Positions 24,381 to 29,493 of a stretch of 35,428 nt of DNA are shown here, piece after piece. Source of the stretch: a virus (lineage: Duplodnaviria > Heunggongvirae > Uroviricota > Caudoviricetes). Made by a program: the position numbers and the translations under genes. The notes beneath the pieces were generated by a model. That model searched no databases. It saw only the letters and a program-made list of their open reading frames with translations, and was not told where the DNA came from. How positions within the stretch are numbered: the stretch's first letter is position 1; the number at the start of each line of letters is the position of its first letter. The stretch lies in the IMG/VR virus record IMGVR_UViG_2923360383_000002; one strand, given 5' to 3'.

Positions 24381-24671
24381 AGCCTCACCTCCGCAAATAA
24401 CGGATGGCGTAGTTTTACACTGAGAAATGAAAGGGATTTGAAAAGAAAAAACCGCAAAAACGGGCGAAACGATATATACAGTAAGGAAAGCACTCTATCC
24501 AACAAACCACCCACAGTTAATCGGAATAAAAGCAGAGTGCTTATGAATGATCGCCTGCCCGAAGGTTAGTATTTCTGCACAGCAATTTTGCAAAAAAAGC
24601 GATCATTCATAACTTAAACGTCTTTCAGTCACTCCGGGATTTCCCATCATCGCAGACTGAAAGACTCTAAC

Positions 24672-24746
<75 letters not shown>

Positions 24747-24749
24747 ATA

Positions 24750-24825
<76 letters not shown>

Positions 24826-24827
24826 AC

Positions 24828-24904
24828 TGGACCGCCACCGGGGACTCGAACCTCGCACACTCAACTTAAAGGGTTGACGCTCTTTCCTGATGAGCTAGTG
24901 GCGG
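24828..24904 (-). tRNA. tRNA-like gene; anticodon UUU (Lys) by position, with atypical C33 and mismatches - possibly divergent or a pseudo-tRNA
   Basis: 7-bp acceptor stem (CCGCCAC/GTGGCGG), TTCGAGT T-loop, CCA end; anticodon loop CCTTTAA; T-stem has one mismatch. Confidence 0.45.
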
Positions 24905-24990: not shown

Positions 24991-25019
24991 ATAATAACGT
25001 TACGAAATCAATGTTGCAA
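24991..25019 (-). promoter_or_regulatory. Candidate sigma70 promoter for the tRNA cluster
   Basis: On the minus strand, TTGCAA, 17-nt spacer, TATTAT, ending about 9 nt before the first tRNA 5' end. Confidence 0.4.
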
Positions 25020-25277: not shown

Positions 25278-26159
25278 ATGGAGAAGTCAACTTCCTTTAA
25301 GGTGTTTTATGACGCCAATGATAAAGAATTGTCAAAGCATGCTATTGACGCTGAAACACTTGGTAAATCAATACTTTCCATGACAACTCTTATTAATAAA
25401 GCTGATAGCTTGTTAAATGAGGGCAACAAATCTGTAAAAATTTTAGTCACTGCCCCCATCCAGAAAGGATCTGTGGGTATTGCATATACTGTAGTGCAAC
25501 TCCTACCGCATGCAATTGACGTTCTGCAAACTATCGGGATTGTTGGAACTGTGGGCGCAACAGCTCATGCCACCGCTTTATCGTTAATAAGACAATTAGG
25601 CTCAAAAAAAGTTGTTTCGATTACCAAAAAAGCAGGAACAGATAAGGCTGTTCTTGAATTTGAAGATGGTGAGATTGAATGCTCATCAGCAGTTGCAACC
25701 TTGGTAACTGAGCCAACAATTCGGGATGCGTTGATTTCTGTTGTTCAGGCTCCTTTAGATGGTAAAGACTCTCCCATTTTTAAAATTGTAGATGAGAATG
25801 ATAAAGTTTTGCTCAAGCTTGAAGGAGAGCAAACTGAAGAGATTAAACCCCTTCCCAGAGGGACGCTTTTGACCAAAACAGTTGAAGAAAAAGAGGTTAA
25901 TGTAAAATTTACCCAAGTTAACTTTCATAGTGAGAAGGGGTGGAGGATGGACTACAACCAAGATGAGCACTCCGTACTACTTACAGACTATGAGTTTTTA
26001 GCTAAAGTAAGGCAAGCAGAGGGAACGATCACTAGTGAAGATATGTTTTCTGTGCTTCTAGAAACAACACGTACAACTTCCGCACGAGGACAAACAGAAA
26101 AGTATGTTATCAAGAAAGTACTTCGTCATCGCGTGATTCAAGGGAAAAAATTGATCTAG
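25278..26159 (+). CDS. Hypothetical soluble protein (293 aa), first gene of the plus-strand cargo operon
   Basis: ATG with AAGGA RBS; AT-rich codon usage unlike flanking phage genes; no Walker or other motif recognised. Confidence 0.6.
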   Translation: MEKSTSFKVFYDANDKELSKHAIDAETLGKSILSMTTLINKADSLLNEGNKSVKILVTAPIQKGSVGIAYTVVQLLPHAIDVLQTIGIVGTVGATAHATALSLIRQLGSKKVVSITKKAGTDKAVLEFEDGEIECSSAVATLVTEPTIRDALISVVQAPLDGKDSPIFKIVDENDKVLLKLEGEQTEEIKPLPRGTLLTKTVEEKEVNVKFTQVNFHSEKGWRMDYNQDEHSVLLTDYEFLAKVRQAEGTITSEDMFSVLLETTRTTSARGQTEKYVIKKVLRHRVIQGKKLI

Positions 26160-26174
26160 CTTTGGTAGAAACTA

Positions 26175-26438
26175 ATGATTCAGCAACAGCTTTTACAAAT
26201 CGTTTTTTGGTTGGGGGTGCTTGTAAGTCTCCCGACCTTCTATCGCTTTGTTTATGCTGGTTCCGCGTTGTTGTGGCGTAAAATTTTTCCTACAAAAATC
26301 GTAGAACTAAGGTTTTACAGTGCTGAACGCATGCTTGAAAAAACGATTACTATCCACTTAGATGCTAAAGATGGAAAGAAGATCGTTGAGCTAATTGATG
26401 ATGCAACCGCGCACAGGCAGTCAAATAATGAGCGGTGA
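26175..26438 (+). CDS. Hypothetical small membrane protein (87 aa, one N-terminal hydrophobic helix)
   Basis: Starts 16 nt after the ORF A stop; hydrophobic segment LLQIVFWLGVLVSLPTFY. Confidence 0.5.
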   Translation: MIQQQLLQIVFWLGVLVSLPTFYRFVYAGSALLWRKIFPTKIVELRFYSAERMLEKTITIHLDAKDGKKIVELIDDATAHRQSNNER

Positions 26439-26826
26439 TAAAAAAAGCATTTTAAGTAGTAATTCTGGTCTAACAACAGGCGGGATTGGCGCAGTTCTAA
26501 CTACATTGGTACCACTATTGGCGCCTGACCCTAATAGTGAATGGAGAGCTTTTTTGTATGCCCTCGCCCCATTAGTGTCAGCAATGCTAACCTACATTAT
26601 GTTGTATGTTATCAATCGACATGGACTTGAGTCTCCAGCCGAAGCCGCCCTAAGAAATCGCCTTGAGCGAGATTTAAAAGGTATTGATGAGCAACTGAAA
26701 AGCCCTCATCTAAGCGAGAAATTTAAAGCTGAGCTTATTGCTGATCGGGAAGAAACTGTTAGAAAGATTGTTAACATTGGTAAGAATGTAGAAGTTTTAC
26801 CTATTGAAGTTACTAAAGAAGAATAA
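26398..26826 (+). CDS. Hypothetical membrane protein (about 132-142 aa, two hydrophobic helices plus charged C-terminal region)
   Basis: Overlaps the ORF B 3' end (alternative starts ATG 26398 or ATG 26428); hydrophobic segments GIGAVLTTLVPLLAP and AFLYALAPLVSAMLTYIMLYVI. Confidence 0.5.
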   Translation: MMQPRTGSQIMSGDKKSILSSNSGLTTGGIGAVLTTLVPLLAPDPNSEWRAFLYALAPLVSAMLTYIMLYVINRHGLESPAEAALRNRLERDLKGIDEQLKSPHLSEKFKAELIADREETVRKIVNIGKNVEVLPIEVTKEE

Positions 26827-26861: not shown

Positions 26862-27230
26862 TCACAATTCCATCTCGAGACGAACATCAAGCATTGAGAG
26901 ACAGCCATCGATAAAGCCCTCTGCCATCTGGATCTCTATCCGTATCAATTTCTCATCTTTTTTACGTGCCTTTGCAATCTTCCGTTTCGAGATGCCGTAT
27001 AGGTAATGAGCCACAATCAGAGAATGTTCGTACGGTTTTTTCTTTTTTAGTAAAGCAAGGCAGCTCTCAATGATAAGAGCGTCATCGTCTGTACAAGAAA
27101 TTCGTGTTTTACTTATCTGCGGCATAAGCCCCTTAAAACCAGCTGCTATAGGTGAATAGTCTACCCCAGAGCTATCACTCGCAGCCCATGCCCCCCACCG
27201 CTCAAGAACCATCTGAATATCACGCACCAT
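26862..27230 (-). CDS. Late-gene antiterminator Q (DLP12 QuuD-like family)
   Basis: MVRDIQMVLERWGAWAA...IAAGFKGL...AEGFIDGCLSMLDVRLEMEL resembles the QuuD-type Q protein as I recall it. Confidence 0.8.
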   Translation of the reverse strand: MVRDIQMVLERWGAWAASDSSGVDYSPIAAGFKGLMPQISKTRISCTDDDALIIESCLALLKKKKPYEHSLIVAHYLYGISKRKIAKARKKDEKLIRIEIQMAEGFIDGCLSMLDVRLEMEL

Positions 27231-29100: not shown

Positions 29101-29256
29101 TTACTCCTCAGGTTCGTAAGCTGTGAAGACAGCGACCTCCGTCTGGCCGGTTCGGATTCGTACCTCGCAGAGGTCTTTCCTCGTTACCAGTGCCGTCACA
29201 ATGACGGTTAAACAGATGACGATCAGGGCGATTAGCATCGCCTTTTGCTGCTTCAT
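29101..29256 (-). CDS. hokD: Hok/Gef-family type I toxin (HokD/RelF-like, 51 aa)
   Basis: MKQQKAMLIALIVICLTVIVTALVTRKDLCEVRIRTGQTEVAVFTAYEPEE matches HokD; AGGAG RBS; in-frame upstream extension to 29313. Confidence 0.85.
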   Translation of the reverse strand: MKQQKAMLIALIVICLTVIVTALVTRKDLCEVRIRTGQTEVAVFTAYEPEE

Positions 29257-29493
29257 AGCCTGCTTCTCCTTGCCTTTCGGCGCGTAAGAGGCTAACCTAG
29301 ATTTGCCGTTCATAGATTGAGCCTCAGATTAATGTTAAGCGTCTTGCCGGACGCGTAATGTTAACTGGGGCTTTTCTCTATCTGCCTTTCAGTGTTCATG
29401 CCTGAGACAGATAGCCTCAAGCACCCGCAGCCATTCTACTTAACTCACGTCACCTCGCCAATATGAAATCAATCAGAAAGGTGATCCATAAAA

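Follow-up and report, generated by a model that had tools for sequence, protein, structure and literature searches.

A prophage tRNA gene with a lysine-type anticodon and C33 on an arginine-type body, and its relatives without U33 in enterobacterial prophages

Transfer RNA (tRNA) genes carried by phages are now being reinterpreted as counter-measures to tRNA-cleaving immunity (PARIS, OLD, PrrC and the retron Eco7). The argN gene, coding for tRNA-Arg(UCG), stands directly after ileZ and downstream of the antiterminator gene Q in the ileZ-argN-argO array of Shiga toxin (Stx)-converting and other lambdoid phages. Phage T5 codes for a tRNA-Lys(UUU) variant that neutralises PARIS, and both its resistance to AriB and the rescue from PARIS have been shown experimentally (PMC11464382, PMC12409363). 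In OLD-resistant phage variants of tRNA-Thr(UGU), such as tRNA-Thr6, a change of the 30:40 pair destroys the CNG motif, and these are Thr decoders that rescue OLD toxicity (PMC12445682). The gene considered here lies on the minus strand at 24828-24904 of the IMG/VR record IMGVR_UViG_2923360383_000002, a 35,428-nt stretch of Caudoviricetes DNA (the window), and is referred to as X. It has a UUU anticodon, yet it is probably not an ordinary lysine tRNA. The reading favoured here, which is a tentative one, is that X is the remodelled and largely retired descendant of a prophage arginine tRNA, represents in E. coli a family of genes that lack U33 and stand in the second slot of prophage tRNA arrays, and is at best a weak decoder.

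The body of X is of the argN type. The gene is 84% identical to argN and 84% identical to an Arg(UCU) relative found in a viral contig (L286), as against 61% to the host lysT, and X as a diverged copy of the host tRNA-Lys was accordingly rejected. An earlier note on this DNA had offered a divergent Lys-type tRNA as one possibility; as a statement of descent this fails, the likeness to lysine tRNA being confined to the anticodon loop, while its second proposal, a tRNA altered in decoding, agrees in broad terms with the place of X as the E. coli branch of a family that lacks U33. X and argN have in common C1-G72, U73, A20, the A51.C63 mismatch and a 77-nt architecture, and X displays the acceptor CCGCCAY, the D arm with A20 and the T arm CGRGG/UUCGAGK/CYCCG of the arginine family, in the position typical of that family, after ileZ and downstream of Q. 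Arginine anticodons of the family (UCG or UCU) have C35; position 35 of X is U, and X therefore descends from the family but does not count among its functional Arg members.

The differences between X and its relatives can be listed. In the stems, the changes from argN to X are U7.G66 to C-G, G3.U70 to G-C, G30:C40 to A:U and U27.G43 to U-A. The anticodon loop of argN is CUUCGAA (U33, anticodon UCG) on a stem with CAG/CUG, whereas that of X is CCUUUAA on CAA/UUG, and the array of X continues with copies of thrU and glyT where that of argN continues with argO. In the viral contig L286 a canonical Arg(UCU) loop, CUUCUAA, stands on the exact anticodon stem of X (UCAAC/GUUGA), together with the acceptor of X, so that the loop of X lies two substitutions away, U33C and C35U. 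The G3.U70 wobble occurs in the argN of an Stx2a phage (L002, 2643-2719) and in the PPompW copy (L003), and X has G3-C70. A G3.U70 wobble in the acceptor is the classic identity element of AlaRS. A chimeric gene in Phytobacter ursingii (L140), with the 5' half of X and a glyT-like 3' end (...GGTTCGATGCCCGCTGCCGCTCCA), suggests recombination between members of the array.

The cloverleaf of X is found by independent means. ARAGORN calls a 77-nt tRNA-Lys(UUU) at exactly the coordinates of X, and the Rfam covariance model RF00005 matches window 24831-24904 with 44.4 bits (gathering score 29, E = 1.9e-6), over its full length, with stems of 7, 4, 5 and 5 bp and a single non-standard pair, in the T stem; no Rfam family besides tRNA matched X. 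The RNA reads CCGCCACUAGCUCAUCAGGAAAGAGCGUCAACCCUUUAAGUUGAGUGUGCGAGGUUCGAGUCCCCGGUGGCGGUCCA. Its acceptor stem of 7 bp, from C1-G72 through C7-G66, continues into U73 and a CCA encoded in the gene; UCAAC/GUUGA makes up the anticodon stem and CGAGG-UUCGAGU-CCCCG the T arm. U8, A14, G18G19 and the T-loop UUCGAGU are all kept in the window's copy. The minimum-free-energy structure of the unmodified RNA differs from the cloverleaf (z = -1.46), a result uninformative for an unmodified tRNA, and the fold therefore rests on the covariance model, on ARAGORN and on covariation within the family. The anticodon UUU occupies 24868-24870 and C33 is the complement of g at 24871 (Table 1). The features that the earlier note had read from the letters (the 7-bp acceptor stem, the TTCGAGT T-loop, the CCA, the CCTTTAA loop and the T-stem mismatch) all lie where it placed them, and the covariance-model score that it had named as a check exceeds the gathering score. 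It had also spoken of a third tRNA, which is right along the plus strand; in the order of transcription (CAU, X, Thr, Gly) X is the second.

Table 1. Coordinates of X, its diagnostic positions and neighbouring features in the window
Feature	Position	Strand	Basis
X: tRNA with Arg-type body, UUU anticodon, C33, U73 and encoded CCA	24828..24904	-	ARAGORN, Rfam, direct reading
Anticodon loop of X, C32 C33 U34 U35 U36 A37 A38	24866..24872	-	direct reading
T-stem A51.C63 mismatch of X, flanking the T-loop (A51 at 24853, C63 at 24841)	24841..24853	-	cmscan alignment
Slot 1, CAU tRNA, identical to Stx-phage ileZ	24906..24981	-	ARAGORN, Rfam, comparison
Slot 3, tRNA-Thr(UGU), 100% identical to E. coli K-12 thrU	24750..24825	-	ARAGORN, Rfam, comparison
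Slot 4, tRNA-Gly(UCC), 100% identical to E. coli K-12 glyT	24672..24746	-	ARAGORN, Rfam, comparison
Candidate sigma-70-like promoter, TTGCAA, 17 nt, TATTAT	24991..25019	-	consensus scan
Two perfect inverted repeats, immediately after the array and ahead of the holin gene	24541..24665	-	
Q antiterminator gene, late-operon context of the array	26862..27230	-	Pfam PF06530, E = 5e-52

Two traits of X that might be taken for signs of decay, the T-stem mismatch and the low covariance score, were rejected as such. On the same Rfam tRNA model argN scores 43.0 bits, nearly the same as X, so that it is the scaffold, not C33, that accounts for the low score. The A51.C63 mismatch is found in 14 of the 37 distinct family sequences, from several genera and with argN among them, and is thus an inherited trait rather than a mark of decay in the window's copy. 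C33 itself is rare: a base other than U at position 33 was seen in one of about 136 distinct tRNAs outside the family among all loci fetched. An ileZ-like gene in slot 1 of a viral contig (L259), in an array of the same kind, has the loop CCUAUAA (C33, anticodon UAU) instead of CUCAUAA and is the only other C33 tRNA seen.

The family to which X belongs was delimited by three scans. The first searched a single genome of each species with the conserved 5' part, and the second searched viral contigs with a D-arm/T-arm pattern of the short-loop form (type B); the patterns of both force conservation of part of the body. The third was anchored on the neighbouring Thr gene alone and left X unconstrained. 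The Thr-anchored sample agrees with the pattern-based scans, its body being nearly invariant, with one clearly decayed copy among about 60. The body was met in Escherichia, Shigella, Salmonella, Citrobacter, Enterobacter, Klebsiella, Kluyvera, Buttiauxella, Dryocola, Cedecea, Pluralibacter, Yokenella, Pseudescherichia and Serratia, usually as the second gene of a CAU-X-Thr(UGU)-Gly(UCC) array. With non-canonical loops it is found at about 46 genome loci in at least 12 genera and in about 95 viral contigs, and canonical 7-nt loops (Arg UCG, Arg UCU) occur in a minority of the family. Most of the genes are 73-74 nt long, with a 5-bp anticodon stem and a loop of 6 or 5 nt to which ARAGORN assigns no anticodon. 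Among the 37 distinct sequences the loop has 6 nt in 25, 7 nt in eight and 5 nt in four, and the 6-nt loops have the form C-NNN-R-U, that is, a normal loop minus U33.

The stems of these genes are kept by compensatory changes at 7:66, 27:43 (six pair types), 30:40 and 52:62, and 96.8% of cells pair in register, as against 37-55% with slid partners; the anticodon stem was taken from an anchor-based parse, its 3' strand having been shifted by one column in the MAFFT alignment, and the other stems from pair counts. When loci with saturated non-tRNA flanks are compared, identity in the body is still about 95%; in the triplet it is about 34%, the random level, and C32, R37 and Y38 take an intermediate place at 76-86%. 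The slot-1 gene of the same arrays served as an internal control, and about 209 of its 211 copies have the loop CUCAUAA. Hypermutation of the type-B triplet, or diversifying selection on it, was considered and dropped: loci with flanks of at least 93% identity have identical triplets, and the triplets become random only once the flanks are saturated, so that there is no sign of hypermutation. Type-B copies matched no Rfam family at E <= 0.01, while an atypical long-arm copy from Kluyvera scored 37.5 bits as tRNA. The type-B array was not found in named isolated phages, whose records hold the E. coli window-type array only.

X has the conserved body, the slot-2 position and no U directly 5' of the triplet, as do its relatives, and is 79-84% identical to type B (Enterobacter, Buttiauxella, Dryocola, Cedecea, Salmonella and others). 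The two occupy the same slot of the array, have the same acceptor, D and T arms and a common CAAC/GUUG core of the anticodon stem, and both lack U33. They differ in that type B combines its loop of 5-6 nt, C-NNN-R-U, with a 4-nt variable loop in a gene of 73-74 nt, whereas X, at 77 nt, has 7 nt in the anticodon loop, with C33 and a readable UUU, and 5 nt in the variable loop. By these traits X is best described as a sister or intermediate form relative to type B, and in sequence it stands midway between the Arg type and the short-loop type, with 84% identity to each. No published description of the C33 of X, of these arrays or of U33-less short-loop prophage tRNAs was found in the searchable literature.

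Other departures from the common form were met in the same scans. Variants with an expanded anticodon arm occur in Escherichia spp. and Shigella (L146, L150, L152, L170, L173, L177, L181, L182 and L186) and in Kluyvera (L183). One of them, an 81-nt form of the body with a 7-bp stem and a 6-nt loop, called Ser(GGA) by ARAGORN, is kept across several Escherichia species; the Kluyvera form has 84 nt and a long hairpin. At L223, L225, L311, L312 and L226, as well as in about 40 other viral contigs, a different conserved element, which is not X, precedes Thr(UGU). It ends in ...CCCCTGAAGAACCA, with the complementary GGTTCTGAGGGGG upstream, and looks like a long hairpin ending in CCA.

The uridine at position 33 forms the U-turn of the anticodon loop, and C33 removes it. 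The loop of X has 7 nt and the purine A37, and what it lacks of a canonical elongator tRNA is U33. Measured against tRNA-Lys(UUU), X has the anticodon U34 U35 U36, but U73 in place of A73, and its body is not homologous to that of lysT. The UUU anticodon, U35 included, is the dominant determinant of LysRS and A73 is needed, any other base at that position lowering lysine acceptance; an unmodified tRNA-Lys transcript is lysylated 140-fold less well than the native tRNA (PMC9976931). The reconstituted E. coli TsaBCDE forms no N6-threonylcarbamoyladenosine (t6A) on a U33C tRNA (PMC8887486), and X, as a C33 substrate in E. coli, is predicted to lack t6A37.

The supply of codons was rejected as a reason for a lysine tRNA in this array. 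In the late genes, with codon usage computed on the window's own open reading frames (ORFs), AAA and AAG occur 31.8 and 15.7 times per 1000 codons, against 27.1 and 10.4 in the host, which is 1.2-1.5 times the host level. The codons of the other three tRNAs are enriched 2-3 times (AUA 5.0 against 1.6, ACA 11.8 against 4.3, GGA 13.8 against 6.7), and the strongest enrichment, 5-6 times, is that of the arginine codons AGA (5.6 against 0.9) and AGG (4.1 against 0.8).

Within E. coli the X family is present in 797 of 5,426 complete genomes, of which 278 have copies at least 99% identical to that of the window. Exact matches to the whole 77-mer are found in many of the complete genomes, at 70 IMG/VR loci and in 19 metagenome contigs, and the loops of the metagenome copies all read (C/U)CUUUAA. 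In 87 arrays of the window type, the number of distinct variants per site is 0.255 for X, 0.118 for ileZ, 0.171 for Thr, 0.133 for Gly and 0.140 for the downstream non-coding DNA. X thus varies at least as much as its non-coding flank, which amounts to no detectable purifying selection within E. coli and is not a proof of neutrality. Among the lower-identity E. coli copies fetched, lesions comprise U8C with C11U, a 1-nt deletion in the D stem, G18A or a second T-stem mismatch; the copies that bear them have no annotation by NCBI's Prokaryotic Genome Annotation Pipeline (PGAP) and no Rfam match at E <= 1, and belong to few lineages in small numbers. Among the RefSeq records listed, annotation as tRNA-Lys is limited to copies of at least about 98.7% identity. 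The phage records ON470580.1 and ON470583.1, with arrays 99.5-99.8% identical, omit X, and PV340566.1 annotates it as tRNA-Lys.

These observations can be ordered as follows if X is a retired arginine tRNA. Its ancestor would have been the prophage Arg tRNA that follows ileZ in lambdoid arrays (argN and its Arg-UCU relatives). The substitutions C35U and U33C on an Arg(UCU)-type loop would have produced an anticodon that looks like that of lysine at the cost of the U-turn uridine; in most genera U33 would have been deleted, leaving loops of 5-6 nt with a drifting triplet, and in the E. coli/Shigella branch it would have been replaced by C. X would be co-transcribed with its array and, because the spacers measure only 1-3 nt, released by RNase P; it would fold as a tRNA, add little or nothing to decoding and persist as a structured unit of the array, the conservation of the body in other genera being due to something other than codon reading. 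Transcription, processing, poor decoding, the lack of t6A37 and weak lysylation are all inferred in this account.

Several points weigh against it. The stem differences from argN all keep or improve pairing. The loop of X equals that of the host tRNA-Lys (lysT, CUUUUAA) with U33C, which is unexpected for a loop that is merely broken. In viral contigs and metagenomes no X body was found with another base at position 33 or with another anticodon, an absence that could reflect constraint. The window's allele is intact and common and is also present in deposited phage genomes, and the polymorphism comparison rests on few, non-independent events (14 variants in 55 sites). Some lysylation through the UUU anticodon is plausible from the sequence. 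C33 tRNAs can work in translation, as the initiator tRNAs of multicellular eukaryotes do (PMC8887486). The initiator tRNA-Met of these organisms resembles X in its natural, conserved C33 beside an anticodon that reads ANN, and its C33 works as an anti-determinant when the t6A37 enzymes are those of bacteria or yeast (PMC8887486); it differs in that its place of action is the P site and that the t6A machinery of these eukaryotes is adapted to C33, whereas X is of the elongator type and the enzymes of its host reportedly reject C33. Finally, a tRNA that is retired but conserved leaves the conservation of the body in other genera without a reason. The suggestion of a decaying pseudogene, also made earlier, has partial support from the many E. 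coli copies with lesions at positions that are normally invariant and from a variation at least as high as that of the non-coding flanks; the intact allele of the window and a body strongly conserved across genera speak against it.

The main rival, ranked below the retired arginine tRNA and judged unlikely though serious, is that X is a working spare tRNA-Lys, charged by LysRS through UUU, which sustains translation when a defence system destroys the host tRNA-Lys, its foreign body and C33 making it a poor substrate for the nuclease. The loop, identical to that of the host tRNA-Lys except at position 33, speaks for such a role, as does the neighbourhood of Thr(UGU), the other main target of PARIS and OLD; Lys codons are not enriched in the phage, so that supply offers no reason for carrying a Lys tRNA. 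The recognition elements of AriB, the PARIS nuclease, are U36AAUC|A41 and U16 (PMC12409363), U39A abolishing the cleavage of tRNA-Lys and U16C impairing it, and T5 escapes by means of its variant tRNA-Lys (PMC11464382, PMC12409363). P2 OLD, the classic defence against lambda, acts at paired CNG motifs and takes off the anticodon arm, and thrU and Gly(UCC) are among its targets (PMC12445682; bioRxiv 10.64898/2026.07.10.737580). PrrC cleaves tRNA-Lys 3' of U33 (PMC2610378), and t6A37 is a positive determinant for it, according to Bacusmo 2018 as cited in PMC12409363. X reads U36AAGUU41, has C16 and a CAA/UUG stem, and thus lacks the elements of both AriB and OLD, the change from G30:C40 in argN to A30:U40 having removed the paired CNG motifs; at the scissile nucleotide of PrrC it has C, which reportedly also blocks t6A formation by E. 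coli TsaBCDE (PMC8887486). With these elements missing or changed, X should escape all three nucleases, as judged on sequence.

The described resistant tRNAs show how far this likeness goes. The T5 tRNA-Lys is, like X, a phage-borne UUU tRNA without the AriB site and with C16 instead of U16; X differs in its Arg-type body, C33, U73 and temperate phage. The 30:40 change that removes both CNG motifs of X relative to argN is of the kind seen in tRNA-Thr6, but X is no Thr tRNA, and the Thr gene beside it keeps the OLD-sensitive CUG/CAG stem. The absence of AriB and OLD motifs follows automatically from the Arg body and is no evidence of adaptation. U73 and the probable lack of t6A37 would both lower lysylation and the decoding of AAA/AAG (PMC9976931, PMC8887486). 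The Thr and Gly neighbours are identical to those of the host and hence cleavable, so that the array as a whole is not made of resistant variants. In other genera the slot-2 genes of the same array have non-decoding loops of 5-6 nt, and the partnership with Thr and Gly is therefore not specific to a Lys decoder. Within E. coli no purifying selection on X is visible and lineages with lesions are frequent, which also speaks against this rival.

The array's Thr(UGU) and Gly(UCC), as copies of the host thrU and glyT, belong to the principal targets of P2 OLD (PMC12445682; bioRxiv 10.64898/2026.07.10.737580). Extra cleavable copies of this kind may replenish the tRNAs targeted by OLD and PARIS through dosage.

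A different function would not involve decoding. It is rather unlikely that lambdoid prophages of the Enterobacteriaceae carry dedicated U33-less tRNA mimics that serve as uncleavable decoys against P2 OLD, the AriB of PARIS or PrrC; if they did, the variable triplet would track the specificity of the nucleases met, and the C33/UUU form of E. coli might also be an emergency Lys decoder, independent of cleavage and of t6A. Quite improbable, too, is the broader proposal that X and its U33-less relatives act through the body, either as decoys or inhibitors of nucleases (OLD, PARIS, PrrC-type) or as RNase P punctuation for their neighbours. A strongly conserved body with covarying stems around a free triplet would fit such an action, as would the partial constraint on C32, R37 and Y38 (76-86%) and a loop length that clusters at 6 nt with no free drift. 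X lacks the CNG motifs of OLD that its neighbours keep, and competition by viral tRNAs has been raised as a possibility by the authors of the AriB study (PMC12409363). With spacers of 1-3 nt, the RNase P cut at the 5' end of X makes the 3' end of ileZ; however, RNase P needs no anticodon stem, and that of the X family covaries, and for processing an array from which X had been precisely deleted would do just as well. To set a stoichiometric decoy against an enzyme that works catalytically is a weak strategy, and the E. coli branch tolerates lesions of the body (U8C, the D-stem deletion), which argues against strong body-dependent selection there.

It is very improbable that X is charged with arginine by way of its A20 Arg body and inserts arginine at lysine codons, as a recoding or mistranslating tRNA. 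A20, the main determinant of E. coli ArgRS, is retained with the Arg-type D-loop, and U73 is not the Lys discriminator; but C35, the other major determinant, has been lost and U35 is a determinant of Lys (PMC9976931). Mistranslation at a very common codon would probably be harmful, and C33 weakens decoding in any case. Lastly, that X is an artefact, either a sequencing or assembly error at position 33, which the earlier note had set as its refuter, or a chance tRNA-like fold, is practically excluded and was rejected, since two independent tRNA finders recover it, it lies in register within a four-tRNA array with spacers of 1-3 nt, and identical copies recur in hundreds of independent E. coli assemblies as well as in viral contigs and metagenomes.

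The surroundings of the array are those of a late operon. The window is a lambdoid prophage of E. coli, apparently complete, its gene order having been deduced from a related annotated prophage and from the ORFs of the window. In that relative, a prophage of E. coli Ecol_224 which carries the same array, the annotation is complete and covers genes for the tail, an HK97-type head, terminase, lysis, tRNAs, Q, RusA, replication and immunity; the two are mosaic relatives only, and the window's Q is a different gene. The four genes of the array, in the order of transcription, are the CAU tRNA, X, Thr(UGU) and Gly(UCC), separated by 1-3 nt; PGAP labels the first tRNA-Ile (lysidine type) and ARAGORN labels it Met. 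The candidate promoter ends about 9 nt upstream of the first tRNA, within the 125 nt upstream of the array that are common to the prophage with a different Q gene, and the number of sites in the scan was no higher than in shuffles. The inverted repeats lie at 24620-24630/24655-24665 (11-nt arms) and 24541-24554/24599-24612 (14-nt arms); they may, from their sequence, be a late-operon terminator or processing hairpins, and a simple scan did not call them intrinsic terminators.

Between Q and the tRNA array the window has a 1.9-kb insert (25278-26826, plus strand), opposite in direction to the late operon and absent from the Ecol_224 prophage. It holds three ORFs, of which that of 293 amino acids (25278-26159) has a match (E = 4e-27) to PDC-S42, a candidate defence family in PADLOC, while those of 87 and 143 amino acids have no match in Pfam or PADLOC. 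A Salmonella array (L131) has a DUF3800 gene at the same place, and the interval between Q and the array may, on this sequence comparison, be a hotspot for morons or defence genes. In the window an Rfam match to the sok antitoxin RNA (110.6 bits, 29251-29426, minus strand) fits the presence of a hok/sok module, a type I toxin-antitoxin system, in the early region; the related prophage has hokD annotated. Matches to the small RNA STnc100 lie near tRNA arrays in L002 (4217-4428), L183 (3102-3293) and L129 (1030-1225), strong ones being those of the Stx phage and of the Kluyvera locus; no STnc100 match reached threshold within the window.

The family is carried by roughly 15% of complete E. coli genomes, and in many of these NCBI's pipeline gives the name tRNA-Lys to what is a U33-less derivative of an arginine tRNA; studies of codon usage or of tRNA supply should keep it apart from the ordinary Lys tRNAs. 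If X is only a decaying relic, the practical value of the finding is this correction of annotation. As C33 reportedly blocks t6A37, and t6A37 favours PrrC, X also offers a test of the loss of U33 as a route of nuclease evasion. The conservation of the body together with a non-decoding loop across enterobacterial genera may mark a new class of RNA and points to a tRNA function independent of codons, as a decoy or as a processing element, and such a body-dependent role, if true, would be the most interesting outcome.

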